DNA from: an uncultured delta proteobacterium
GTDB taxonomy: Bacteria > Myxococcota > Myxococcia > Myxococcales > Myxococcaceae
Assembly (NCBI GenBank): GCA_963796055.1
Contig: CAWCKH010000003.1
Coordinates: 608,001 to 672,000, forward strand
Direction of reading: 5' to 3'
Length of the DNA stretch: 64,000 nucleotides
The position numbers and the translations under genes are program-made. The stretch's first letter is position 1. Each line of letters starts with the position of its first letter. This document shows, piece after piece, positions 1-14,594 of the stretch. The notes beneath the pieces were generated by a model. It was not told the DNA's origin. It ran no database searches and saw only the letters and a program-made list of their open reading frames with translations.

Positions 1-640
1 TGTAGGTCAGGTAGTAGGTGAGGAGCGCCGTCAGGTTCGCGGCGTTCATCGGGCAGGCCGAGAGGTTGATCAGGTTCTTCACCCCGGGGACCGCGTCGGC
101 GACCCCCAGCGCGCCGGTGGGGTTCGGTGACGCGGCCGGGAGCCCGCCGTAGGTGGCGCAGGTCCCGGCGGCGATGGTGGCCGCCGCCTTGCCGCAGACC
201 TCCCGGGCGATGTCCAGCGCCGAGCGCCCGCCGATGGTGCAGTACGCGCCGTCCGCGCCGGTGGGGATGCTCCCCTCCACCACCGCGATGAACTGACCGG
301 CGTTGTCCTTCACCACGCCCTTCAGCGCCTCCTCGGCCTGGAAACCCGCCGCGGCCATGATCGTCTCGTGGTAGTCCACGCTGAGGAGGTCGAGGACGAT
401 CTCCGCCACCGTCGGCGCGCTCGAGCGCAGGAACGACTCGGTGTTGCCGGCACAATCCTGGAACTCGAGCCACACCAGGATGGGCTTCTTGGCCTTGGTG
501 AGCGCGTTGGCGATCTGCGTCGCCGCGGAGGCAGGTAGACCGAACGTGCCCGCGACCCCGGCGCAGAACAAGAGCAACTCCCGGCGACTGACTCCGCGGC
601 GCCGGAGCTCTCGGGCCAGCCAGCCTTCGCGACTCCTCAT
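1..640 (-). CDS. [NiFe]-hydrogenase small subunit, group 1 type, Tat-exported (3' part outside window)
   Basis: Not in the ORF track; read by hand from ATG at 640 (SD GGAGG): MRSREGWLARELRRRGVSRRELLLFC (Tat motif)...VWLEFQDCAGNTESFLRS...DYHETIMAAAG...VEGSIP...YCTIGG...GTCATYGG...PNPTGA...NLSACP. Confidence 0.93.
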   Translation of the reverse strand, partial: MRSREGWLARELRRRGVSRRELLLFCAGVAGTFGLPASAATQIANALTKAKKPILVWLEFQDCAGNTESFLRSSAPTVAEIVLDLLSVDYHETIMAAAGFQAEEALKGVVKDNAGQFIAVVEGSIPTGADGAYCTIGGRSALDIAREVCGKAAATIAAGTCATYGGLPAASPNPTGALGVADAVPGVKNLINLSACPMNAANLTALLTYYLTY

Positions 641-1019: not shown

Positions 1020-1865
1020 TCACTCCGCTCCGGGAAAGCGCGGAGGCCGCCGGGCGAAGAAGGCGTCGATGCCCTCGGTGAACTCCGGCGAGTCCGCGCT
1101 CCGGATGAGCGCCTCCAGCTCCCGGTCGAGGTGCACGTCCAGCCGGTCCACTCCCAGGGCGTCGTTGAACAGCTGCTTGGCGGCGGCGAACGCTCCGGCG
1201 GGACCCGCAGCGACGCGCCGGGCCACGACCTCCACCTCGGTGTCGAACGCCGCGACGGGAAAGACGCCGTTCACCAGCCCCGCGCTCCTGGCCGCTGCCG
1301 CATCGAGCCGCGGGTTCAAGAGCACCATCTCTGCGGCGAAGCGCAGCCCCACCAGCCGGGGGACGAAGAAGGTCGAGCTCTCCGCGCCGCTCAGGCCGGT
1401 CTTGGCGTAGGCCCACTCGAAGGTGGCCCGCTCGGAGGCGAGGACCAGGTCGCAGGACATGGCCAACCCGAGCCCTCCCGCCGCGCAGGCGCCGTCCACC
1501 GCGGCGATGAACGGCTTCGGCGCGCGGCGGATCTCCGAGATGGTGGAGTGGAGGTACTCGAGGATCTGCTTGAAGATCTCCCCCGGGCCGAGCGGGACGG
1601 CCCGCGCGCCAGGCGTCAGGTAGGCCAGCTCGGCCGGGTCGCCGCCGGCGCGGATGTACTTGAGGTCCGCCCCGCTGCAGAAGATGCCGGGCGCCCCGCG
1701 CAGCACCACCACCCGGACCGCGGGGTCCCGCGCCAGCTGGAGGCCGGCCTTCCGGAGGTCACGCGCGGTCGAGACGTCGAGCGAGTTGAAGCGCTGCGGC
1801 CGGTCGATGGTGAGGGTTCCGACGCCACGGTCGACGGCGGTCCGGATGTGAGTCGGCGCGGCCAC
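1020..1865 (-). CDS. Enoyl-CoA hydratase/isomerase (crotonase) family protein, possibly HypX C-domain-like
   Basis: FCSGADL, PKPFIAAVDGACAAGGLGLAMSCD and EGIDAFFARRPPRF motifs; starts 6 nt after the hypE stop. Confidence 0.88.
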   Translation of the reverse strand: MAAPTHIRTAVDRGVGTLTIDRPQRFNSLDVSTARDLRKAGLQLARDPAVRVVVLRGAPGIFCSGADLKYIRAGGDPAELAYLTPGARAVPLGPGEIFKQILEYLHSTISEIRRAPKPFIAAVDGACAAGGLGLAMSCDLVLASERATFEWAYAKTGLSGAESSTFFVPRLVGLRFAAEMVLLNPRLDAAAARSAGLVNGVFPVAAFDTEVEVVARRVAAGPAGAFAAAKQLFNDALGVDRLDVHLDRELEALIRSADSPEFTEGIDAFFARRPPRFPGAE

Positions 1866-1871
1866 GGGCCC

Positions 1872-2906
1872 TCAGCAGATCCGCGGCATCGGCTCGCCCT
1901 CGGGCTCGGCGAGGAGCCGCCGTCCGAGGCCGGTGTCGAGCACGATGCGCCCCTTCTGCTCGGCGATGCAGGTGCCCACCACCGCGGCGCGCCGGCCCAG
2001 GGGGTGCCGGTCCAGGGCGGCCATCACCCGGTCCAGCGCCTCGGGGCGAACGCCGATCACCGCCTTGCCCTCGTTGGCCACGTGCAGCGGGTCGATGCCG
2101 AGGATCTCCGAGGCGGCGCGCACCTCGTCGGAGAGCGGCACCGCCTGCTCCTCGAGGAGGATGCCCACCCCGCTCTTCTCCGCCATCTCGTGGAGGGCGC
2201 TGGAGAGCCCTCCGCGCGTCGGGTCCTTCATCGCCACCACGCCGTCGCCGGCGGCCCGGAGCACCTCCCGGACCAGCCCGTTGAGCGGGGCGACATCGGA
2301 TTTCAGATTCCCCTGGAGCTCCAGCTTCTGCCGCGCGGCCAGCACCGCGAAGCCATGGTCCCCCATGGTGCCGGTCACCACGATGCGGTCTCCGGGGCGG
2401 AGCCCGTTGTCGCGCACCAGCCGGTCGGTGAGGGCCACGCCGGTGGTGTTGAGGACCAGGCCGTCCAGCTCGCCCCGGCCCATCACCTTGGTGTCGCCGG
2501 TGACGACCGGCGCCCCGGCCTCGCGGGAGGTGTCCCGCATCGAGGCATGGATGCGCTCCAGCTCGGCGATGGGAAAGCCGTCCTCGATCACCACCGCGCA
2601 GGTGAGCCCCAGGACCTCGGTGGCCCCCATCATCGACAGGTCGTTCACCGTTCCAGAGATGGACAGCCGTCCCACGTCCCCGCCGGGGAAGAAGCGCGGG
2701 GCGACGATGTGCGAGTCGGTGGTGAGCACCAGCCAGCCGTCCTTGAGCGGGAAGGCGGCGCCGTCGTCCATCTCCGCCAGGCCCACCGAGCCGGGAGGCT
2801 GCTCGGCCCCCTCGGCGAACAGCTGCTCGATGAGCGCGCGCATCGCCCGGCCGCCGGCGCCGTGCTTGAGGCTCACCGTCGTCCCCAGCGGAAGGGTCGG
2901 TCTCAC
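1872..2906 (-). CDS. hypE: Hydrogenase maturation carbamoyl dehydratase HypE
   Basis: HGAGG, DDGA, TTDSH, FFPGGDVG, GTVNDL, TGDTKV, KDPTRGG, ANEG and C-terminal PRIC; GTG overlaps the hypD TGA. Confidence 0.96.
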   Translation of the reverse strand: MRPTLPLGTTVSLKHGAGGRAMRALIEQLFAEGAEQPPGSVGLAEMDDGAAFPLKDGWLVLTTDSHIVAPRFFPGGDVGRLSISGTVNDLSMMGATEVLGLTCAVVIEDGFPIAELERIHASMRDTSREAGAPVVTGDTKVMGRGELDGLVLNTTGVALTDRLVRDNGLRPGDRIVVTGTMGDHGFAVLAARQKLELQGNLKSDVAPLNGLVREVLRAAGDGVVAMKDPTRGGLSSALHEMAEKSGVGILLEEQAVPLSDEVRAASEILGIDPLHVANEGKAVIGVRPEALDRVMAALDRHPLGRRAAVVGTCIAEQKGRIVLDTGLGRRLLAEPEGEPMPRIC

Positions 2907-4057
2907 GGCGCGCCTCCCACGGCCACCTGGCGGAGCTGCGGATGTCCGCCGTACTGGTGCCAGATGCGGCAGGTGCCCTCGCTGGACACCATGCAGGCGC
3001 CCACCGGCGTCTCCGGCTGGCACTCCTTGCCGAACAGCGGGCAGGCGGTGGGCGACTGCAGGCCGGACATGATCTCGCCGCAGATGCAGCGCTGGACCAG
3101 CGCCGGCGGGGCGAAGTCCCACAGCGCCTTGACGTCGATCTCGAAGCGGCGCCTGGCGTCGAGGTGCGCCCAGGAATCTTGAAGCCGGAGGTTGCCGTTG
3201 GGCACGTGGGCGATGCCCCGCCAGCGCCCGCCCAGGGGACGGAACACCTTCCACAGCTGCTCCTGCGCCGCGACGTTCCCCTCCCGCGTCACGCAGCGGG
3301 GGTAGAGGTTCTCCACCGTCGGGGTGCCGTCGCGGATCAGCTCCACCAGCCGCAGCAGGCCGGCGAGGATGTCCAGCGGCTCGAACCCCGCCACCACCAC
3401 CGGCAGCCGGTGCCGCTCGACGAACGGCTCGAACACCCCGGACCCGGTGATGGTCGCTGCGTGACCCGCGGCGAGGAACCCCTCCACCCGGCTGCCGGGC
3501 ATCTCGGCGACGATCTCCATCACCGGCGGGATGTACTTGTGGGCCGAGAGGACCGAAAAGTTCCTCGGTGGCCCGCGGAGGATCTCCGCCGCGGTGGCCA
3601 CGGCGGTGGTCTCGAACCCGGTGGCGAAGAACACCACCTCCTCCTCGGTCTGCCGGGCGAGCTCCACCGCCTGCGAGACCCCGTAGACGATGTCCACCTT
3701 CGCCCCGGCCGCCCGGGCATCGGCCAGCGAGCCCGCCGAGCCGGGCACCCGGAGCATGTCCCCGTAGGTGGCCACCCGCACGCCCTGGCGCGCCAGGGCC
3801 ACCCCCTCGTCCACCTCGGGCACGTCGGTGATGCACACCGGGCACCCGGGGCCCATGATCACGTCCAGCGCGGGCGGGAACGCCGCGCGCAGACCGAACC
3901 GGGCGATGGCCTGCTCGTGGCTGCCGCACACGTGCATCACCGAGACCGGCTCGCGGCCGATCTCCCGGGTCACCTTCTCGATGGCGGCCCCGAGCGCCCG
4001 GGCGGCCATGGGGTCGCGGAACTTGAGCTGGGCGGCGTCGGCGGCCGGGGTGCTCAC
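2903..4057 (-). CDS. hypD: Hydrogenase maturation protein HypD
   Basis: MHVCGSHE, GPGCPVC, GFETT, GFEPLD, CPLFGKEC and GACMVSSEGTC motifs. Confidence 0.97.
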   Translation of the reverse strand: MSTPAADAAQLKFRDPMAARALGAAIEKVTREIGREPVSVMHVCGSHEQAIARFGLRAAFPPALDVIMGPGCPVCITDVPEVDEGVALARQGVRVATYGDMLRVPGSAGSLADARAAGAKVDIVYGVSQAVELARQTEEEVVFFATGFETTAVATAAEILRGPPRNFSVLSAHKYIPPVMEIVAEMPGSRVEGFLAAGHAATITGSGVFEPFVERHRLPVVVAGFEPLDILAGLLRLVELIRDGTPTVENLYPRCVTREGNVAAQEQLWKVFRPLGGRWRGIAHVPNGNLRLQDSWAHLDARRRFEIDVKALWDFAPPALVQRCICGEIMSGLQSPTACPLFGKECQPETPVGACMVSSEGTCRIWHQYGGHPQLRQVAVGGAP

Positions 4058-4341
4058 GGCTTGCTCCGGTGGGCCGCGTCCAGCTCACCCCGGACGTCGG
4101 CGGCCATGAGGTCGCCGGGAGCCTCCTTCGCCAGGAGCTCGGAGTAGAGGGCCAGGGTGTCCTCGGCCTCGCTGGCCGGGATGCGGCGGATGGCGAACCC
4201 CACGTGGTTCAGCACGTAGTCGCCGGGAGCCACTGGCGCGTCCACCACGTCGAGCCGGACCTGCTTCCGCAGGCCCCAGAAGTCCACCGTGGCGACGAGC
4301 CCATCGACCTCCACCACCCGACCTGGCACTCCGAGGCACAT
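4054..4341 (-). CDS. hypC: Hydrogenase maturation chaperone HypC
   Basis: N-terminal MCLGVPG and GDYVLNHVGFAI. Confidence 0.96.
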   Translation of the reverse strand: MCLGVPGRVVEVDGLVATVDFWGLRKQVRLDVVDAPVAPGDYVLNHVGFAIRRIPASEAEDTLALYSELLAKEAPGDLMAADVRGELDAAHRSKP

Positions 4342-4353
4342 TGACGTCTCCTG

Positions 4354-6624
4354 TCATCCGCGGGTGGTCGCGTCGGCCACCATCACCTGGCCCAGCGCGA
4401 TGCCACCGTCTCCCGGCGGGACCTGCCGGTGCAGGTACACCGCGCAGTCCGGGTCCAGCGCTGCCTTCAGGCCCTCCGCGAGCCGGGCGTTCTGGAAGCA
4501 GCCCCCGGTCAGGACGACGGGGAAATCGCCCGCGCGGTCGCGCACCAGCCCGACCAGGGTCGCGGTGGCGTGCACCAGCGTGTCGTGGAACTTCGCCGCC
4601 AGCCGCGCGGCGGGCACGCCCCCCAGGTGCTCCTCGATGAGCGCCCGCACCATCGCCCGGAAATCGAGCTCCAGCACCGACCCGCGGGTGTCGATCCCGA
4701 ACGGGTACCGTCCGTGCCCCCCGGCGTCGGCCGCCAGGTTCCAGGCCAGCGCGACCTCGCCCTCGTAGCGTGCTCTGCCCTTTCCCAGGACCAGCGCTCC
4801 GAGCCCGTCGAACAGCCGTCCCATCCCGTGCGCCTTCGGCGCGTTGATGCCCAGGGTCAGCGCCTGGCGCACCAGCACCACGGCGTCCTCCGGGATGGCG
4901 GGAAAGTTCCACAGGCCGGGTGGGTCGCCGTCGTAGGCGTCGAGCAGGAGCGCCAGCCCGATGCGCCAGGGCTCGTGGATGGCGCGCTCACCGCCGGCCA
5001 GCGCGACCGGGCGCAAGGTCGCGCAGCGCTGGAAGGCGGTCGCCGAGGCGACCAGGATCTCCCCGCCCCAGGCGGTCCCGTCGGTGCCGTAGCCCGTCCC
5101 GTCGAACGCCACCCCGATGACCGGCCCGTCCAGGCGGTGCTCGGCCAGGGCACTGGCCACGTGCGCGTGGTGGTGCTGCACCGCGACCTTCACCGGCTCG
5201 GGCCGGTCCAGCGCGTACCGGGTGGAGGCGTAGTCGGGGTGCAGGTCGTAGGCGATGACCTCCGGCCGGCAGCCGAGGAAGCGCTGCATCCGGTCGATCG
5301 ACTCCTCGTAGGAGCGGTGGACCTCCAGCTGGTCCAGGTCACCCACGTGGGGACCCAGCACCGCCACGTCCCCGGCGGCGAGGCAGAACGTGTTCTTCAG
5401 CTGCGCGCCGCACGCCAGCACCGGCCGGGCCACCGGGCGGGCAAGCGGGATGGGCCGGGGCACGTACCCCCGCGAGCGCCGGAGCAGCACCGGTGCACCC
5501 GCCACCACCCGGGTGACCGAATCGTCGCAGCGGGTGACGATCGGCCGATCGTGGGTGAGGAAGAGGTCGGCGACGTCCCGGAGGCGGTTCAGCGCCTCGG
5601 GCTCCTCGAAGACGATGGGTTCGTCGGAGAGGTTGCCGGAGGTCATCACCAGCGGCCGCTCCACCTCGGCGAGCAGCAGATGGTGCAGCGGCGTGTAGGG
5701 CAGCATCAGGCCGAGGAGCGGGTTGTCGGGCGCGATCTCGGGCGCCACTGGCCGCCCCGAGCTCTTGCGCGCGACGAGCACGATGGGCCGCTCCACCGTC
5801 TCCAGTAACTTCGCCTCGGCCTGGGAGAAGCTGGCCAGCTTCCGGGCCTCGCGGAGGTCGCGCACCATCACCGCGAACGGCTTGGCATCGCGCCGCTTCC
5901 GCTCCCGGAGCAGCTGCACCGCCTCGGACGAGGTGGCGTCCACCGCCAGGTGGTATCCGCCGAGCCCCTTCACCGCGACCACGTTCCCCGCCCGGAGCGC
6001 CGAGGCGACCTCGCGGATCGGATCCGCCGAGGTCAGGTCCCTCCCCCTCGAGTCGAGCAGCCGCAGCCGCGGGCCGCAGCGCGGACAGGCGTTGGGCTGG
6101 GCATGGAACCGCCGGTCCCTGGGATCGTCGTACTCGCGCTGGCAGGCCTCGCACATCACGAAGGCCGCCATCGAGGTGACCCGGCGGTCGTACGGCGCGT
6201 CCCGGGCGATGGTGAAGCGCGGGCCGCAGTCGGTGCAGTTGGTGAACGGGTAGCGGTACCGCCGGTTGGAGGAATCGAAGATCTCCGCCACGCACGCCGG
6301 GCAGGTCGCCAGATCCGCGGGGATCGACACCCGGCGCCCGGTCCCCGGGAGGCTGGGGGCGATGACGAATCCCTCCGTCGGCCGGGGAGGAATCTCCTTC
6401 CACTGGAGCGAGCGGATCTCCGCCGCCGGCGGAGGGTCCGACTGCAGCGCCCGCACTAGGCCGTCGAGTGCCGAGGGCTCGCCGAATGCCTCCACCGTCA
6501 CCCCGCCCACGTCGTTGCGGACCTGCCCGGCGATCCCCAGCTGGGTGGCGATCCGGTACACCCACGGACGGAAGCCCACCCCCTGGACCGTGCCTACCAC
6601 CTCGATGCGTCTGCCCTGCTGCAT
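4354..6624 (-). CDS. hypF: Carbamoyltransferase HypF
   Basis: Acylphosphatase domain GTVQGVGFRP, zinc fingers CPAC/NCTDCGPRF/CEAC/CPRC, KGLGGYH, DLHPDY, QHHHAH, DGTGYG, PPGDGG. Confidence 0.97.
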   Translation of the reverse strand: MQQGRRIEVVGTVQGVGFRPWVYRIATQLGIAGQVRNDVGGVTVEAFGEPSALDGLVRALQSDPPPAAEIRSLQWKEIPPRPTEGFVIAPSLPGTGRRVSIPADLATCPACVAEIFDSSNRRYRYPFTNCTDCGPRFTIARDAPYDRRVTSMAAFVMCEACQREYDDPRDRRFHAQPNACPRCGPRLRLLDSRGRDLTSADPIREVASALRAGNVVAVKGLGGYHLAVDATSSEAVQLLRERKRRDAKPFAVMVRDLREARKLASFSQAEAKLLETVERPIVLVARKSSGRPVAPEIAPDNPLLGLMLPYTPLHHLLLAEVERPLVMTSGNLSDEPIVFEEPEALNRLRDVADLFLTHDRPIVTRCDDSVTRVVAGAPVLLRRSRGYVPRPIPLARPVARPVLACGAQLKNTFCLAAGDVAVLGPHVGDLDQLEVHRSYEESIDRMQRFLGCRPEVIAYDLHPDYASTRYALDRPEPVKVAVQHHHAHVASALAEHRLDGPVIGVAFDGTGYGTDGTAWGGEILVASATAFQRCATLRPVALAGGERAIHEPWRIGLALLLDAYDGDPPGLWNFPAIPEDAVVLVRQALTLGINAPKAHGMGRLFDGLGALVLGKGRARYEGEVALAWNLAADAGGHGRYPFGIDTRGSVLELDFRAMVRALIEEHLGGVPAARLAAKFHDTLVHATATLVGLVRDRAGDFPVVLTGGCFQNARLAEGLKAALDPDCAVYLHRQVPPGDGGIALGQVMVADATTRG

Positions 6625-6856: not shown

Positions 6857-8077
6857 TCACTCGTAACGAAGCGCGTCGATGGGATCGAGCCGGCTCGCCT
6901 TGCGCGCCGGGTACAGCCCGAAGACCACGCCCACCGCGCCGCTGAAGACCACCGCGAGGATCATCACGTCCCAGCGGAAGGCCACCGGCCAGTGGAACGC
7001 GGCGGTCAGCCAGCGCGCGGTCACCACGCCGGCGCTGATGCCCAGCAGGCCGCCCGCCACCGAGAGCACCACCGCCTCGCTGAGGAACTGCCGGAGGATG
7101 TCCCTGCCGCGGGCCCCGACCGCGATGCGGGTGCCGATCTCCCGGGTCCGCTCGGTCACGCTCACCAGCATGATGTTCATGATGCCGATGCCGCCGACCA
7201 GCAGCGACACCGCGGCGACGATGGCCAGGAACAGCGTCACCGTCCGGCTGCTCTCTTCCCGGGCGCTGGCCACCTCCGCGAGGTTGCGGATCTGGAAGTC
7301 GTCCTCGCTCGGGCCGCCGATCCGATGGCGGTCCCGGAGCAGGTCCGCCACCTGCCCCTCGGCCGTGGCGGCATTGGTCGCGCTGATGAAGATGGTGCCC
7401 TGGAGGAACTTGCCCAGCCCGCCCTGGATCTTCGCCTGGAAGGTGCTCCGGGGGATGAAGACCACGTCGTCCGAGTCCTGGCCGGTGGGGGTCTGGCCCT
7501 TGCGCCCTGCCACCGCCACCACCTGGAAGGGGATGTTGCGGATGCGCACCGTCTGGCCGACGGGGTTCGAGTTGGGGCCGAAGAGCTTCTCGGCGACCGT
7601 CGCCCCGAGCACCACCACCTTGGTTCCGATGTCCACGTCGGAGTCGGTGAAGCGGGTGCCGAGGGCCATGGGCCAGCTGCGGATCTCGAAGTAGTCCGGC
7701 TCGGTGCCGGCCACCTGGGTGGTCCAGTTCTGCTCCTCGCTCAGCACCTGCGAGGAGCTGCGGAGGTACGGCACGGCGTAGCGGACGGTGGGCACCTCGG
7801 CGCGGACGGCCCGGAGGTCGTCCCAGGTCAAGGTCGGCTGCGAGCCGAACCCGCCCCGCGCGCCGCCGGTGACCGAGGAGCCCGGGAGCACGACCAGCAG
7901 ATTGGTGCCCATGGAGGCGAAGGCCTCCTCGACCGCCGAGCGCGCGCCCTCCCCGATGGCCACCGTGGCCACCACCGCCCCCACCCCGAAGATCATCCCC
8001 AGGGTGGTGAGGAAGGAGCGGAGCTTGTTCCGGAGCAGCGCCCGGATCGCCACCCGCAGCGTCTCCAGCTCGCTCAT
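6857..8077 (-). CDS. MacB-family ABC transporter permease
   Basis: NKLRSFLTTLG, GGIGIMNIMLVSVTERTREIG, PARKASRLDPIDALRYE. Confidence 0.93.
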   Translation of the reverse strand: MSELETLRVAIRALLRNKLRSFLTTLGMIFGVGAVVATVAIGEGARSAVEEAFASMGTNLLVVLPGSSVTGGARGGFGSQPTLTWDDLRAVRAEVPTVRYAVPYLRSSSQVLSEEQNWTTQVAGTEPDYFEIRSWPMALGTRFTDSDVDIGTKVVVLGATVAEKLFGPNSNPVGQTVRIRNIPFQVVAVAGRKGQTPTGQDSDDVVFIPRSTFQAKIQGGLGKFLQGTIFISATNAATAEGQVADLLRDRHRIGGPSEDDFQIRNLAEVASAREESSRTVTLFLAIVAAVSLLVGGIGIMNIMLVSVTERTREIGTRIAVGARGRDILRQFLSEAVVLSVAGGLLGISAGVVTARWLTAAFHWPVAFRWDVMILAVVFSGAVGVVFGLYPARKASRLDPIDALRYE

Positions 8078-8808
8078 CCCGCCTCCTCCTCCGGGAGAGC
8101 CGACGGGTCGGCGCGGGCAGGGGCCTGCCGCCGGTCGCTCGCGATGTGCCCGTCGCGAACCACCACCACCCGGCCGACGAAGGTGGCGATGTCCGGCTCG
8201 TGGGTGACCAGGACGATGGTGATGCCGCTGCGCCCCAGCTCCTGGAAGAGCGCCATCACCTCCAGGCTGGTCCGCGAGTCGAGGTTCCCGGTGGGCTCGT
8301 CGGCGAGGATGACCTTCGGCTGGCTGACCAGCGCCCGGGCAATGGCCACCCGCTGCTGCTGCCCGCCCGAGAGGCGGTTCGGAGTGTGGTCCAGCCGATC
8401 GCCCAGCCCCACCCGCTCCAGCGCCTCGGCCGCACGCCGCCGCCGCTCGGCCCGGCCGAGGCCCGCGTACAGGAGCGGCAGCTCGACGTTCTCGATGGCC
8501 GAGGTCCGGTTCAGGAGGTTGAAGCTCTGGAACACGAACCCCAGCATCCGGTTCCGGATCCGGGCCAGGGCGTCCCGGTCGAGCGGGGCCACGTCCCGGC
8601 TGTCGAGCAGGTAGCGCCCGGTGGTGGGCCGGTCGAGGCAGCCGAGGATGTTCATCAGGGTCGACTTTCCGCTGCCGGACGGCCCGCGGATGGCGATGAA
8701 CTCGCCGGTGGCGATCTCCAGGCTCACCCCGCGCAGCGCGCGCACCTCCACGTCCCCCATGCGGAAGACCTTGGTGACGTCCTGGACGGCGATCAGCGGA
8801 CTGGCCAT
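8074..8808 (-). CDS. ABC transporter ATP-binding protein (LolD/MacB type)
   Basis: Walker A GPSGSGKS, signature LSGGQQQR, ILADEPTGNLD, VTH. Confidence 0.95.
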   Translation of the reverse strand: MASPLIAVQDVTKVFRMGDVEVRALRGVSLEIATGEFIAIRGPSGSGKSTLMNILGCLDRPTTGRYLLDSRDVAPLDRDALARIRNRMLGFVFQSFNLLNRTSAIENVELPLLYAGLGRAERRRRAAEALERVGLGDRLDHTPNRLSGGQQQRVAIARALVSQPKVILADEPTGNLDSRTSLEVMALFQELGRSGITIVLVTHEPDIATFVGRVVVVRDGHIASDRRQAPARADPSALPEEEAG

Positions 8809-10089
8809 CTAGAACGGCCGCCGGACCGGTCCTCCGGGAGGAGCGGCCGGGGTGGGAGCGCGGCCGGTGCTCTCCACGCCGGTCACCACCGCGTCCCCCG
8901 CCTGGAGCGGGCCGGAGACGACCTCGGTGAAGGTCCCGTCCGAAACGCCCACCGTGACCTGCGCCGGGGCGGGTCGGCCGTCGCGCAGGACCCAGAGGCT
9001 GCGTCCGTTTCCTCCGCCGCCGGCCGCCTGGGCGGTGCCTCGGCCTCCGTCGCGTCCCGCCACTCTCTGCGGAGCGCCGCTGGTGCGCCCCAGCGCGGCG
9101 AGCATCTCCGGCGGCGGGCGAAAACGGAGCGCCGCGTTGGGCACCCGCAGCGCGTCCTGTCGATCAGCGTAGATCACCGTCACGTTGGCGGTCATCCCCG
9201 GCCGGAGCTTGAGGTCCGGGTTGTGCACGTCGATCACCGCGTCGTAGGTGACCACGTTCTGCTGCGTCTGCGGTGCGTTGCGGATCTGTCGAATCGTTCC
9301 CTTGAAGCGTTCGTCGGGGAAGGCGTCCACCACGAAGGTGGCGTCCATTCCCGGGGCGAGCTTGCCCACGTCGGCCTCGGCCACCGAGGTGTCCACCTGC
9401 ATCTGCTGGAGGTCGCCGGCCAGGGTGAAGATGGTGGGCGCCTGCAGGGAAGCGGCGACCGTCTGGCCCACGTCCACGCTCCGGGAGATGACCGTCCCGT
9501 CGACCGGGGAGGCAATCTTGGTGTAGGCGAGGTTCACCTCGCTCTGGGTGAGCTGCGCGCGGGCCTGCGCCAGCTGACCGCGCGCCGCGACCACCGACGC
9601 CTCGGCCCCCTGGAGGGTGGTCTCGGCGGTGTCGAGGTCTGCCTGGGCGACGAGGTTGCTGGCCCGCAGCGACTTGTCCCGATCGTAGGTTCGGCGGGCG
9701 GCGAGCACGCTGGCCTGGGCCTGCTTGAGCTGGCCCTCGGCGGCGAGCACGTTGGCCTTCGCCTGCGCGAGGTTGGCCTCGAAGAGTGCGGGGTCGATCT
9801 CGGCGATCAGCTGGCCCTTCTTCACCGTCGAGTTGTAGTCCGCATGCAGCTTGGCGATGCGCCCGCTGACCTGGCTACCGACCTGAACGGTGACCACCGC
9901 GGAGAGGATGCCGGTGGCGGTCACCCGCGCCACCACCGGGCCCTTCACCACCGCCGCGACCTGGTACTGCAGGGGCGAAGGCCGGTGCAGCACCCGCCAG
10001 GTGACGAGGCCAGCGACCACCAGGACGACGAGCGCGGCGACCCAGAGCCAGCGGCGGCGGCCGGGGTGGGACGCGTCGGGTTCGGGCAT
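8809..10089 (-). CDS. Efflux periplasmic adaptor subunit (MacA/HlyD family)
   Basis: N-terminal TM, VQVGSQVSG, coiled-coil hairpin, IASPVDG, GQTVAASLQAP, LRPGMTANV. Confidence 0.92.
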   Translation of the reverse strand: MPEPDASHPGRRRWLWVAALVVLVVAGLVTWRVLHRPSPLQYQVAAVVKGPVVARVTATGILSAVVTVQVGSQVSGRIAKLHADYNSTVKKGQLIAEIDPALFEANLAQAKANVLAAEGQLKQAQASVLAARRTYDRDKSLRASNLVAQADLDTAETTLQGAEASVVAARGQLAQARAQLTQSEVNLAYTKIASPVDGTVISRSVDVGQTVAASLQAPTIFTLAGDLQQMQVDTSVAEADVGKLAPGMDATFVVDAFPDERFKGTIRQIRNAPQTQQNVVTYDAVIDVHNPDLKLRPGMTANVTVIYADRQDALRVPNAALRFRPPPEMLAALGRTSGAPQRVAGRDGGRGTAQAAGGGGNGRSLWVLRDGRPAPAQVTVGVSDGTFTEVVSGPLQAGDAVVTGVESTGRAPTPAAPPGGPVRRPF

Positions 10090-10161: not shown

Positions 10162-10722
10162 TCAGCGCTTCAGCATCGGCCTCCCCTCGTGGGTGACGAG
10201 GAGGTCGTGCATGTCGTTGGCGTGCTCCTCCTCCTGGGCCAGGACGCGCTCCAGGAGATGCCGGGTGGTGGGGTCCTTCTCGCCGAAGTAGCGGACGAGT
10301 TCGCGGTAGTGCTCGATGGCGATCCGCTCGGCCACCAGGTTCTCGCGGATCATGTCCACCAGGTTCTCGCCCTCGGTGTACTGCGATACCGCGCGGGAGG
10401 TGAGCCCCTCGGGGTTGAAGTTCGGCCGGCCGCCAAGCTGGTTGATGCGCTCGGCGATGAGGTCCATGTGCTCCTCCTCCTCGCGGGCGTGCTGGGCGAA
10501 CTCCTCCTTGACCGACTCGCTGGAGATGCCGGTGGCGGAGACGGCGTGCGACTTGTAGCGCAGAACGCAGACGATCTCGGTGGCCAGCGCCTCGTTGAGG
10601 AGGGCGATGGCGGTCTGGACGTCCCCTCCGTAGTTCTCGGTGACCGCCCCCATCTCCAGCTTCTCGCGGGCCCGCTTCCGGATCGCGGCGATGTCGGTGG
10701 CAAAGGTGCTCTTGTTGCCCAT
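10162..10722 (-). CDS. Ferritin-like/bacterioferritin-related di-iron protein
   Basis: LNEALATEIVCVLRY, EEEEH, RINQLGG, ENLVAERIAI, DPTTR, EEEHA; ATG with SD GGAGG. Confidence 0.88.
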   Translation of the reverse strand: MGNKSTFATDIAAIRKRAREKLEMGAVTENYGGDVQTAIALLNEALATEIVCVLRYKSHAVSATGISSESVKEEFAQHAREEEEHMDLIAERINQLGGRPNFNPEGLTSRAVSQYTEGENLVDMIRENLVAERIAIEHYRELVRYFGEKDPTTRHLLERVLAQEEEHANDMHDLLVTHEGRPMLKR

Positions 10723-10829: not shown

Positions 10830-11855
10830 TCAGCCGGAGAGGATCCGACCGACGAGCCAGTAGCCGCCGAGCCCGGCGACGGCCACCGAGGCCCAGCGCA
10901 CCCCTGCCGGCCACATGCCGCCGACACCGCGCAGCCATCGCAGGACCGGCCAGGCGAGCGCGACGATGACCAGCTGCCCGATCTCGACCCCGAGGTTGAA
11001 GGTCAGCAGGCTCGGGGCGAGCAGGGAGCGCGGAAGCTCGAGGGCGCGCAGGGCGCCGGCGAATCCGAAGCCGTGCACCAGACCGAACCCGAAGGTGAGT
11101 CGCCACCGGTGAGCGATTGCAGACCTCACCCGCTCGCCCGACAGGGGGGCCCTGAGTGCGAGGAGGTTTTCCACCGCCACCGCGACGATGCTCAGGGCGA
11201 TCAGCGGCTCGACGAGCCGGGGCGGGGGCACGACCCATCCCAGGGTGGCCAGGGCCAGGGTCAGCGAGTGGGCGACGGTGAAGGCAGTGACGATGGCCAG
11301 CAGCTGCCGGAAGGTGCCTCCCAGCAGCAGCACCCCGATCAGGAACGCGATGTGGTCCGCCCCCTGGAAGATGTGCTCGGCACCGAGGCGGAGAAATCTC
11401 GCGGCGCCCGCCCAGGCTCCCGGCTGCGCTTCGACCTCGAGCACCGGCGCGCTCGCCCGCGCGGTCCGTTGCACGGTGCCCCCGGGGAGCCGGAGCAGCG
11501 CGACGTGCAGGTGGCCCTCGGGAAGCCGATCCAGGAACCCGAGCACCATCCGCAGCCGGCCGGGCGCACGGGGACACTCCCAGCGGGCGGTCACCGCCAC
11601 TCCATCGTCCTGGACCGGGGCGGCAGAGGAGGTGGCGAGCGTGCACGCGGCTCCGTCCACCGAGACCTGCACCGTGGCCGCGACGTCCTCGGGCCGGAGC
11701 ACGTCGAGCTCCACCCGGGCGAACTGGAGCGTCGCCTGCACTCGCCTCCCCTCGACCGTGACGTCACCGGTGGACAGGCGCAGCGCGTGGGCCCGGACGG
11801 CTCCGGGGACGAGCGCGCAGAGGGCGAGCAGGGCGAGGAGGCGCGGGCGGGGCAT
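10830..11855 (-). CDS. HupE/UreJ family protein (putative Ni/Co uptake)
   Basis: Signal peptide ending ARA-H, then LGAEHIFQGADHIAF, TAFTVAHSLTL, FGLVHGFGFA, FNLGVEIGQ. Confidence 0.9.
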   Translation of the reverse strand: MPRPRLLALLALCALVPGAVRAHALRLSTGDVTVEGRRVQATLQFARVELDVLRPEDVAATVQVSVDGAACTLATSSAAPVQDDGVAVTARWECPRAPGRLRMVLGFLDRLPEGHLHVALLRLPGGTVQRTARASAPVLEVEAQPGAWAGAARFLRLGAEHIFQGADHIAFLIGVLLLGGTFRQLLAIVTAFTVAHSLTLALATLGWVVPPPRLVEPLIALSIVAVAVENLLALRAPLSGERVRSAIAHRWRLTFGFGLVHGFGFAGALRALELPRSLLAPSLLTFNLGVEIGQLVIVALAWPVLRWLRGVGGMWPAGVRWASVAVAGLGGYWLVGRILSG

Positions 11856-11955
11856 CGGCTGGGCGCCACCCTAACGAGGGCAGACCGGTGCCCGCGCAGC
11901 GAATTTCACTTGAATCCGATTGCCGCCCGCGTCCGTACTTCGTCCGGTCCAGCCC

Positions 11956-12336
11956 ATGCGCCCTGCCCGACGCACCCCGGAGCAGCGAAGGAGCGAAGCC
12001 GCTCCGCTCGCGCTGGTGCTCGCCGGCTGGGCGCTGGCGGTGGCGCCCGTCGCCCACCCGCTGCTCGGGCACGGCACGCCGTTCCTCCATGACTCGGCCG
12101 ACGAGGGGTGGGTCCACCATGGGGACGGTCGCGGCGGTGACGGCGGGCCGGCGGTTCCGGCCGGGCACCACCACGCCCCCGGAGCCCCCGAGCACCTCCA
12201 GCTCCCGCTGCTGGCAGCCGCGCCGCCGCCCGTCTTCCAGACGGTTGTGCTCGCCGTACGGCCGCCGCCGCCGCGCGCGGAGCGCCCTCTCTCCCTCCCC
12301 CGCCGGTGGTCGCAGGAGCAGCCGCAGGCGCCGTGA
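11956..12336 (+). CDS. His-rich upstream ORF of the TonB receptor, candidate ribosome-arrest leader peptide
   Basis: Hydrophobic N-terminal segment, His-rich middle (H, HH, HHH), Pro-rich linker, C-terminus EQPQAP-stop; ends 62 nt before the receptor start. Confidence 0.6.
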   Translation: MRPARRTPEQRRSEAAPLALVLAGWALAVAPVAHPLLGHGTPFLHDSADEGWVHHGDGRGGDGGPAVPAGHHHAPGAPEHLQLPLLAAAPPPVFQTVVLAVRPPPPRAERPLSLPRRWSQEQPQAP

Positions 12337-12339
12337 GCC

Positions 12340-12357
12340 GCACGGGAGCTCCCGTGC
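12340..12357. promoter_or_regulatory. Perfect 18-bp palindrome/hairpin just after the uORF stop
   Basis: GCACGGGAGCTCCCGTGC. Confidence 0.6.
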
Positions 12358-12398
12358 CGCCCGTCGTCCGCTGACCGTTCCCGAACCCCCCAGGGGGA

Positions 12399-14594
12399 GT
12401 GATGCCCCGATCCGTCCGGACGGGCCAGGTGCTCGTCCTGTTGCTCGCGGGTGCGACCGCACGCGCCCAGCCCGCCACCGCTCCGCCGAGCGGGCCGTCG
12501 GAGACCACGGTGGCCCAGCTGACCCCCGATGCTCCCTCGGTGGACGCGAATGGGTCGCCGTACCAGACGACGGTCGAGGCCCGGGCCCCGACCTCCGCGG
12601 CCTCGGCGGAGACCATCCGCGACCGGGACCTCCGGCTTCGACCCTACGCGACCCCGGAGGACATCCTCCGCGTCGTGCCCGGCCTGGTCACCGCCCAGCA
12701 TCAGGGCGGGGGAAAGGCCGACCAGCTGTTCCTCCGCGGATTCGACGCAGACCACGGAACGGACGTCGCCCTCTCCCTCGACGGCATCCCCGTCAACCTT
12801 CCCTCGCACGGCCACGGCCAGGGCTACGCCGACCTGAACTTCCTCATCCCCGAGGTCGTCGACCGCGTGGAGGTGCTCAAGGGTCCCTACTTCGTCGAGT
12901 TCGGCGACTTCGCCACCGCCGGCGCGGTGAACCTCCGCACCCGTCGCAGCTTCGCCGAGAGCTCCGTCCAGGCGTCGTACGGATCGTTCCAGAGCTGGCG
13001 CGTCCTGGGCGTGGGGAGCACCGGGGCCACCGCGAACCCCACCTGGCTCGCCGCGGAGGTGTCGGGCACGCAGGGCCCGTTCCTCGTCGGCGAGGACCTG
13101 CGCCGGTACGCCCTCTTCCTCAAGTCGACCCTGCAGCTCTCGTCGAGCACCACCCTCGGCATCCTCGCCAGCGCGTACGGATCGCAGTGGCGTGCGAGCG
13201 GCCAGATTCCCGAACGGCTGCTGACCGTCTCCCAGTTCAACCCCGTTGCCCTGGACCCCTTCGGCTCGATCGACCCCAGCGAGGGCGGCCAGACCCAGCG
13301 GCAGATGATCGCGCTCACCGTCGAGAGCCACCCGTCGGACCGGAACGAGATCGCCCTCACCGCCTACGCGGTCCGTTACCGGCTCACGCTCTTCAGCGAC
13401 TTCACCTTCCAGCTCCACGACGAAACCAACTTCGACGAGATCGAGCAGACCGACGCGCGCCTCTACACCGGGCTGAACGCGATCTACCGGCGCCGCATCG
13501 AGCTCGGTGACGTCCGGATGGTCACCACGATCGGCGCCCAGGCCCGGCTGGACTCGACGACGGTGGGACTCTGGCACGTGAAGGAACGCGTCCGGCTCCC
13601 GACCTGCGCACCGGTGGTGCCGGGCGCCCCGCTCAATCCCTGTGCGCTCGACGACGTCGTCCAGTCCGACCTCGCCGCCTTCTTCCAGGAGGACGTGCGG
13701 TTCACGCCATGGCTGCGGGTGGTGCTCGGGGTGCGTGGAGACCTGTTCGAATGGAACGTCACCAACAACGGCCCGAACCCGAGCCCCGCCGAGAACCACG
13801 GCACGGGAGTCGTCCAGCGCGGCATCGTCAATCCCAAGCTGCAGACGGTCATCACTCCCCTCACCGGCTGGGACCTGTACCTCGACGCCGGAGGTGGCTT
13901 TCACAGCAACGACGCGCGGGCAGTGGTGGCGCAGAACGGCTCGGGGGCGCTTCCCCGTGCGTGGGGCGGCGAGGTGGGCACCCGCCTGTCGCTTCTCGAC
14001 CGGAGGCTCGACCTCGCCGCAGCGCTCTGGGCCATCCACCTCCAGTCCGAGCTGGTCTTCGTCGCCGACGAGGGGACCACCGAGGCGTCGGACCCCACCG
14101 ACCGCTATGGCCTCGACCTCGAAGCCCGCTTCCGCATCCTCGCCTGGATGTGGGCCGATCTCGACCTCACGCTCGCGCACGCCGCGTACACCCAGGACCA
14201 CGGCAACGCCCGGGCGGTGGCGCTGGCACCGACCTTCACCGCCCAGGCCGGCCTCAGCGTCGTCCACCCCGCGGGCATCCGTGGGCGGCTCGGCGCGCGC
14301 TGGGTCGGGAGCCGCCCGGCCACCGAGGACCCGAATGGCCTGCAGGCGCAAGGGTACTTCATCGTGGACCTCACGCTCGCCTACCGCTGGCGCTTCCTCG
14401 AGGTTGGCCTGGCCATCGAGAACGTGCTGAACACCGCCTGGCGCGAGGCCCAGTTCGCCAACAACTCGTACGTGGCTGGGCGAGACCCGGACCTCCGCGA
14501 TCCGGTCACCGGTGCACGGATCGGCCAGTTCGGCATCCACTTCGCGCCGGGGAACCCGATCAACGTCCGGGGCACGGTCGCGGTCTACTTCTGA
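12399..14594 (+). CDS. TonB-dependent receptor (probably for a metal)
   Basis: Signal peptide, TonB-box-like TTVEA, plug motifs VPGLVTAQHQGGGKADQLFLRGFDADHGTD, NLPSHGHGQGYADLN and KGPY...GAVN; beta-barrel ending in F. Confidence 0.94.
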   Translation: MMPRSVRTGQVLVLLLAGATARAQPATAPPSGPSETTVAQLTPDAPSVDANGSPYQTTVEARAPTSAASAETIRDRDLRLRPYATPEDILRVVPGLVTAQHQGGGKADQLFLRGFDADHGTDVALSLDGIPVNLPSHGHGQGYADLNFLIPEVVDRVEVLKGPYFVEFGDFATAGAVNLRTRRSFAESSVQASYGSFQSWRVLGVGSTGATANPTWLAAEVSGTQGPFLVGEDLRRYALFLKSTLQLSSSTTLGILASAYGSQWRASGQIPERLLTVSQFNPVALDPFGSIDPSEGGQTQRQMIALTVESHPSDRNEIALTAYAVRYRLTLFSDFTFQLHDETNFDEIEQTDARLYTGLNAIYRRRIELGDVRMVTTIGAQARLDSTTVGLWHVKERVRLPTCAPVVPGAPLNPCALDDVVQSDLAAFFQEDVRFTPWLRVVLGVRGDLFEWNVTNNGPNPSPAENHGTGVVQRGIVNPKLQTVITPLTGWDLYLDAGGGFHSNDARAVVAQNGSGALPRAWGGEVGTRLSLLDRRLDLAAALWAIHLQSELVFVADEGTTEASDPTDRYGLDLEARFRILAWMWADLDLTLAHAAYTQDHGNARAVALAPTFTAQAGLSVVHPAGIRGRLGARWVGSRPATEDPNGLQAQGYFIVDLTLAYRWRFLEVGLAIENVLNTAWREAQFANNSYVAGRDPDLRDPVTGARIGQFGIHFAPGNPINVRGTVAVYF

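Follow-up and report, generated by a model that had tools for sequence, protein, structure and literature searches.

A stand-alone crotonase linked to hypE resembles the HypX C-terminal domain and is a candidate source of the [NiFe]-hydrogenase CO ligand

Why does a crotonase gene lie directly behind hypE in a myxobacterial hydrogenase maturation operon, and what might its product do there? The gene (1020..1865, minus strand) is found in the 64,000-nucleotide stretch of a Myxococcaceae genome analyzed here (the window) and encodes a protein of 281 residues with a GTG start, containing the peptide AYAKTGLSGAESSTF. A match to Pfam ECH_1 (151 bits, cut-off 27) assigns it to the crotonase superfamily, with the corresponding fold and oxyanion-hole motifs. 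Its GC3 of 0.94 is as in the hyp genes, versus 0.60 for an overlapping shadow frame. The four upstream genes, all on the minus strand, exceed their NCBIfam cut-offs: hypF (4354..6624, start approximate; TIGR00143, 739 bits, cut-off 466.1), hypC (4054..4341; TIGR00074, 76.9 bits, cut-off 48), hypD (2903..4057; TIGR00075, 391 bits, cut-off 192.8) and hypE (1872..2906; TIGR02124, 375 bits, cut-off 251.6). The hypE stop codon ends at 1872, leaving 6 nt to the crotonase. The original prediction described the crotonase as the last gene of a hypF-C-D-E series behind a 6-nt gap; both points stand for the hyp genes, with the refinement that a membrane-bound group 1 [NiFe]-hydrogenase operon follows on the same strand, its ATG at 640, about 380 nt past the crotonase.

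The 5' part of the hydrogenase small subunit gene occupies 1..640 (minus strand), as identified from ORFs and from genome tblastn with C. necator HoxK/G/Z/M, and the operon goes on beyond the window with the large subunit, cytochrome b and protease genes. A promoter and terminator scan of 600-2000 found none, and no terminator-like site between the crotonase and the hydrogenase operon. The small subunit (window 1-640 together with G000:C3:604500-608640, G000 being the source genome) has C-x-G-N at the proximal cluster, and the L1 motif of the large subunit also occurs in 35 of the 80 crotonase loci described below. This hydrogenase may resemble group 1f. Several ORFs upstream of hypF were named by eye, all but the ferritin-like one noted on the minus strand: a MacAB-like ABC exporter directly upstream (6857-10089), a ferritin-like ORF upstream of the exporter (about 10162-10700), a HupE/UreJ-like membrane ORF (10830-11855) and a TonB-dependent receptor-like ORF (12399-14594). 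The last two (10830-14594) may bring nickel to the nearby hydrogenase.

To see how widely this arrangement occurs, we scanned species genomes and obtained 183 crotonase relatives, of which the best 80 (63-95% identity) were fetched; these come from Myxococcota, Acidobacteriota, Rokubacteria/Methylomirabilota and Binatota. A protein search gave at least 120 relatives at 69-100% identity, many of them automatically named PaaG by JGI. Among the best 80 of the 183, hypE lies upstream in 79 loci, the eightieth having only 13 nt of upstream DNA. The crotonase is directly behind hypE (within 131 nt) in 60 of the 80, with one gene between them in 18 and a transposase-like ORF in one; hypA and hypB share the locus in 57. 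Even sampling of the Myxococcota gave 251 genomes; of these, 15 have the crotonase, 104 hypD and 4 HypX. Each of the 15 crotonase genes is no more than about 2.2 kb from hypD, the 147 hypD-less genomes yielded none, and crotonase and HypX were never found in one genome. The C. necator HypX query, which did detect HypX in the Myxococcota and Acidobacteriota genome sets, found no fused HypX in the first 50 of the 80 crotonase genomes. Homologs beside hypE in genomes where no HypX was found, the arrangement that the original prediction proposed to look for, are thus the usual case. Such genome counts are tallies rather than tests, because kin are not independent and many genomes are incomplete. 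Nevertheless, gene context makes it close to certain that the crotonase is a dedicated Hyp accessory protein. A plasmid search had no match at E 1e-40, the ESM Atlas returned generic crotonase cluster names only, and a cluster look-up of 7 relatives yielded no informative names.

Several features of these loci were recorded alongside. In 37 loci (L020:8850-9533 and 36 others), the crotonase is followed by a His-containing membrane protein with a weak DsbD_2 match, possibly a nickel transporter. One genome has the crotonase between two hypD copies (G232:C1:1939951-1944097). HypD proteins of crotonase-bearing operons, including that of the window (2903-4057), belong to a lower-scoring TIGR00075 group (E about 1e-110 to 1e-122, compared with 1e-127 to 1e-155 for other HypD proteins). 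In family f2, hypD occurs in 33 of 33 genomes and nearly always belongs to the lower-scoring group, but only 2 of them carry the crotonase.

We then compared the active site with those of HypX and of PaaG-like proteins. The catalytic pair of classical enoyl-CoA hydratases, Glu144/Glu164 (rat numbering), is absent as originally stated: at the positions where two canonical crotonases encoded in the same genome carry Glu, we find Gly133 and Tyr153. The motif given for HypX in the original prediction, HYKxMGxLYGSEYWTY, matches the C. necator HypX sequence. Codons 153-162 (1380..1409, minus strand) encode Tyr153...Gly160-Ala161-Glu162, and BLAST places Tyr153 on Tyr439 and Glu162 on Glu449 of C. 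necator HypX (28% identity over 202 residues, with a one-residue gap); the Aquifex equivalents are Tyr416 and Glu426. The Tyr-Glu spacing is 9 in the crotonase family versus 10 in HypX. All 80 loci (best 80 of 183 relatives) and 120 of the 120 homologs listed contain the motif Y-x3-[GSA]-L-x-G-[AT]-E.

As a control set, we used a profile search of 1.84 billion representatives; among the 150 matches listed, 116 of 250-300 residues were kept, comprising 7 members of the crotonase family and 109 PaaG-like neighbors. An NCBIfam scan of 36 of the 150 proteins gave none above a cut-off among the matches listed. Tyr occupies position 153 in 82 of the 109 neighbors and is therefore not diagnostic for likeness to HypX; we rejected it as a HypX hallmark. 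The signal thus rests on Glu162, Gly160, Ala129 and a lost Asp. Glu at 162 occurs in none of the 109 neighbors. Position 161, which corresponds to Asp136 of PaaG, is Asp in 101 of them; in the D136N structure 6sla the residue opposite Ala161 is number 136, and each of 18 family rows compared has Ala there. The P-D-G of PaaG has become G-A-E, and the catalytic Asp136 is therefore lost. Gly160 and Ala129 (1479..1481, minus strand) are common to the family and six HypX C-domains (the latter as Ala415 in C. necator) and occur in 6% and 2% of the neighbors, respectively, 107 of the 109 having Gly in place of Ala129. Ile71 and Ile101 are also shared with the six HypX C-domains and are rare in PaaG-like neighbors. 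The HypX-like Tyr/Glu pair originally proposed thus aligns in both residues, with Glu162 distinctive and Tyr153 commonplace. By a 23-residue offset from C. necator Ala415, Ala129 probably corresponds to Ala392 of Aquifex HypX. As described in PMC6802093, Aquifex Ala392 lies near the cysteamine of the folded CoA, Tyr416 and Glu426 adjoin the CoA thiol, and a HypX-minus phenotype results when R. eutropha HypX is mutated at Tyr439 or Glu449.

In overall sequence, the protein is closer to crotonases of PaaG-like and further types (matches among PDB sequences from E 9e-34) than to HypX. A quick phylogenetic tree of 55 rows placed the family and the HypX C-domains on one side (SH-aLRT 99.8). A more careful 26-row tree on a reduced set (6 family members, 3 HypX, 13 neighbors and 4 paralogs of the window's genome, most long paralogs being omitted) set both apart from the rest with support of 100/97 and nested HypX within the family; without the motif columns, the grouping received 97/86. 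The grouping was not recovered in a quick tree of 34 rows lacking the motif; a tree constrained to contain it had the higher score and passed the AU test (p-AU 0.82). In the careful trees, then, the family's affinity is to the HypX C-domain and not to the PaaG-like neighbors, in line with the original prediction. The HypX stem is very long (3.8-4.7 changes per column) and the HypX sampling narrow; common ancestry is therefore likely but not settled, and it is possible that the HypX-like residues of the family arose by convergence from a PaaG-like ancestor. A confident AlphaFold model of the crotonase (pLDDT 90.8) was compared with 48,161 representatives in a wide fold search. HypX (6j0p_A) ranked third (Z 30.8, RMSD 3.1 over 259 aligned residues, 21% identity), tied with several others, behind 4lk5 (33.6). 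This match speaks for the fold and not the function, and partly reflects the C-terminal helix packing in the monomer model. In a Foldseek search, HypX was absent among the matches listed.

Further evidence comes from the gene that separates hypE and the crotonase in 18 of the 80 loci, all from Acidobacteriota. It encodes a Formyl_trans_N protein that is PurN-like (72 bits versus the PurN cut-off of 150; best PDB matches to PurN); in the Acidobacteriota locus L046, for instance, it spans 7270-7998 and precedes the crotonase. The Asn-x-His and Asp are kept, and His125 and Asp169 are invariant in 63 sequences. We also fetched 80 metagenome loci of the partner. Counting those with enough flank, the gene immediately before it is hypE in 66 of 67, and the gene immediately behind it is the crotonase in 62 of 63. 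We found the crotonase in 9 of 221 Acidobacteriota genomes, the partner family in 9 and both in 8, adjoining in 7; HypX is present in one of the 221, with no overlap with crotonase or partner. The idea that the partner is a detached HypX N-domain was rejected, with an hhalign probability of 23.5% and no HypX among 34 PDB matches.

Formyltransferase loci with other arrangements were also observed. Four Acidobacteriota genomes (L097-L100) have the order hypC-hypD-formyltransferase-crotonase-hypE. The arrangement hypF-formyltransferase-hypB, without the crotonase in the locus (L109:2629-6313 and L095), is the sole such exception among formyltransferase loci; genome G378 had no crotonase match at 1e-70. 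A second paralog of the partner lies directly behind a hypC-like gene in four of four extra loci (L084:5889-7017, L085:5573-6711, L086:5325-6362, L087:5173-6164), and some of its copies deviate in the His or Asp motif. Its neighbors, named by eye, are pyruvate:ferredoxin oxidoreductase-like, GNAT/acyl-CoA ligase fusion-like, radical SAM-like and nitroreductase-like.

Taken together, residue identity, tree position and the pairing with a formyltransferase suggest that the crotonase is probably a formyl-CoA decarbonylase that makes the CO ligand of the hydrogenase. Formyl-CoA would be bound in the crotonase fold, where Tyr153 and Glu162, directly or via water, would act as base in converting it to CO and CoA. 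The CO would be passed to the Fe carried by the HypC-HypD scaffold, whose genes lie a short way upstream, and its supply would allow hydrogenase maturation under oxygen. The reaction itself, the transfer of CO to HypCD and the dependence on oxygen are inferred. This function is supported by the fixed position in the hyp operon, the HypX-type residues, the loss of the hydratase and PaaG acids, the negative search for HypX in the same genomes, the PurN-like partner in a subset of operons, and three heme-copper oxidase motifs in the source genome. The original proposal of a stand-alone protein like the HypX C-domain has likewise gained from the hyp linkage, the absence of HypX, the careful trees and the separate formyltransferase in 18 of 80 loci. 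Counted against decarbonylation are the higher overall similarity to PaaG-like proteins, the frequency of Tyr153 among neighbors, the very long HypX branch (4.5-4.7 changes per column), the quick 34-row tree, the spacing of 9 rather than 10, the 60 of 80 genomes without a partner, and the merely third rank of the HypX structure in the wide fold search. It also counts against it that CoA is a bound prosthetic group of HypX and that formyl-CoA is channeled, according to the sections of two articles drawn on here (PMC6802093, PMC12134894).

The protein could be a true Hyp accessory with another chemistry: it might release CO from a different acyl-CoA (for instance oxalyl- or glyoxylyl-CoA), hydrolyze or remove CoA esters, or bind HypCD non-catalytically. 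In its favor, crotonase folds host many reactions, five residues invariant in the family (Leu80, Tyr82, Leu83, Tyr104 and Glu150) are absent from HypX, the crotonase carries an insertion relative to PaaG, and the formyltransferase family is missing from 60 of 80 genomes. However, its near-obligate neighborhood with the formyltransferase (62 of 63) points to a formyl group, and the positions at which it agrees with HypX lie close to the CoA thiol. We regard a different chemistry as unlikely, if worth keeping in mind.

If the crotonase does decarbonylate formyl-CoA, where would this substrate come from? In Acidobacteriota with the partner, it would most likely be made from 10-formyl-THF by the partner formyltransferase. 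The partner family is present in 20 of the 80 crotonase genomes (15 of 50 and 5 of 30), in two as a paralog elsewhere only, and no member was found in the other 60. Most crotonase copies are therefore without an evident substrate supply, and in the source genome and most others formyl-CoA would have to come from outside the operon. The original observation that the window has no formyltransferase gene holds, and it extends to the whole source genome for the partner family, of which no member was found. This genome is 98.5% complete, and a search of it for HypX was negative. It has three Formyl_trans_N genes, resembling PurN, PurU and Fmt (Fmt by elimination); formate-THF ligase was not found in it. 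The hypA and hypB genes are on another contig (G000:C4:1213566-1214917), about 13 kb from a second [NiFe]-hydrogenase cluster of the bidirectional, NAD(P)-linked type (G000:C4:1227001-1232257).

A ThDP enzyme of this genome (G000:C4:3198921-3200555) falls below all NCBIfam cut-offs and has its best PDB matches among 2-hydroxyacyl-CoA lyases/synthases, with some likeness to oxalyl-CoA decarboxylase as well. 2-Hydroxyacyl-CoA lyases and oxalyl-CoA decarboxylases give formyl-CoA, and this enzyme is a candidate donor, on sequence likeness, in the source genome. Its counterparts occur in 22 of 35 partner-less versus 1 of 15 partner-bearing genomes, a distribution that follows taxonomy, and the restriction to 22 of the 35 counts against the decarbonylase function. 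None was found in partner-less Acidobacteriota or Polyangiales-type genomes, leaving 13 partner-less genomes unexplained; we therefore rejected this enzyme as the general source of formyl-CoA. Further candidate donors in the source genome are a family III CoA-transferase, of which there are two, both below the formyl-CoA transferase cut-off, and a side activity of PurU or PurN.

The lack of a partner in so many genomes might also mean that the family works only together with the formyltransferase, and that partner-less copies, including that of the window, are leftovers of an operon. Along the crotonase phylogeny (FastTree) the partner is gained or lost at least 6 times, and one locus has a transposase-like ORF between hypE and crotonase (L023:6205-7473) where its close relative, sister locus L026, has the formyltransferase. 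Against such decay, whole partner-less clades (15 rows of Myxococcaceae type and 23 of Polyangiales type) have retained undisrupted reading frames together with the invariant motif, and their crotonases are as conserved as HypE, as in the partner-less lineage L008 (78% identity for the crotonase versus 73% for HypE). This makes a leftover quite improbable. Least credible is an ordinary PaaG-like isomerase or hydratase of fatty-acid or aromatic catabolism that lies beside hypE by chance, which gene context largely refutes: the best NCBIfam matches are to oxepin_alt and PaaG and many homologs bear the JGI name PaaG, but the scores are far under the curated cut-offs (165 versus 300 for oxepin_alt, the best, and 143 versus 345.15 for PaaG, TIGR02280), the catalytic Asp136 is replaced by Ala, linkage to hyp genes holds for 79 of 80 loci and spans several phyla, and no copy turned up in the 147 hypD-less genomes.

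We return to formyl-CoA decarbonylation as the probable function. A broader evolutionary scenario can be put forward only tentatively. The family may be a free-standing, possibly ancestral module behind the HypX C-domain that paired independently with two formyltransferases, once in the HypX fusion and once with the separate PurN-like gene of Acidobacteriota. In about three quarters of the genomes, the source genome included, CO might then derive from a free pool of formyl-CoA without a dedicated formyl-THF step. If so, this would be a third route to the hydrogenase CO ligand, and it would make directly testable the proposal of formyl-CoA as the precursor in HypX-less maturation, which appears in the sections drawn on here of a 2025 review that calls the CO source there unresolved (PMC12134894). 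The same sections cover only fused HypX (PMC12134894). In the literature covered, with subscription papers and supplements outside the scope, we found no description of a stand-alone or two-gene HypX-like form. The family offers a candidate enzyme that is small and has a single domain; it is present in Myxococcota, Acidobacteriota, Rokubacteria/Methylomirabilota and Binatota, where it is now automatically named PaaG, and it points to a formyl-CoA supply yet to be found. A stand-alone crotonase would let decarbonylation be studied separately from formyl transfer, and could be a compact part for aerobic hydrogenase expression.

How does the family compare with known systems? Like HypX in pHG1, the crotonase follows hypE (79 of 80 family loci), and it has in common with HypX the crotonase fold, the Tyr/Glu pair, Gly160 and Ala129. 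Unlike HypX/HoxX (C. necator pHG1; Aquifex aeolicus 6J0P), it is a stand-alone protein of 281 residues rather than a fusion of 560-600 residues. It has no N-terminal formyltransferase domain; the partner, where present, is separate and weakly similar to HypX-N. A search for fusions gave 8 long matches, and the six inspected were frameshift read-throughs of neighboring hyp genes and were rejected as fused crotonase forms (lengths of 493-529 residues were outside those searched). With the fusion absent, we propose that the family works like HypX but is not HypX. The highest overall similarity is to PaaG (TIGR02280) and the alternative type of oxepin-CoA hydrolase (NF046063), which have the same fold and an aromatic residue at the Glu164 position; unlike PaaG, the crotonase is encoded in a hyp operon and not among paa genes. 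The partner resembles PurN and PurU in its Formyl_trans_N domain with the conserved Asn-x-His and Asp, and differs from them in an extra conserved C-terminal motif and in being always within hyp operons, the housekeeping-type matches being separate in the same genomes. Formyltransferase and crotonase behind hypE together reproduce, as two genes, the domain content and position of HypX in pHG1.
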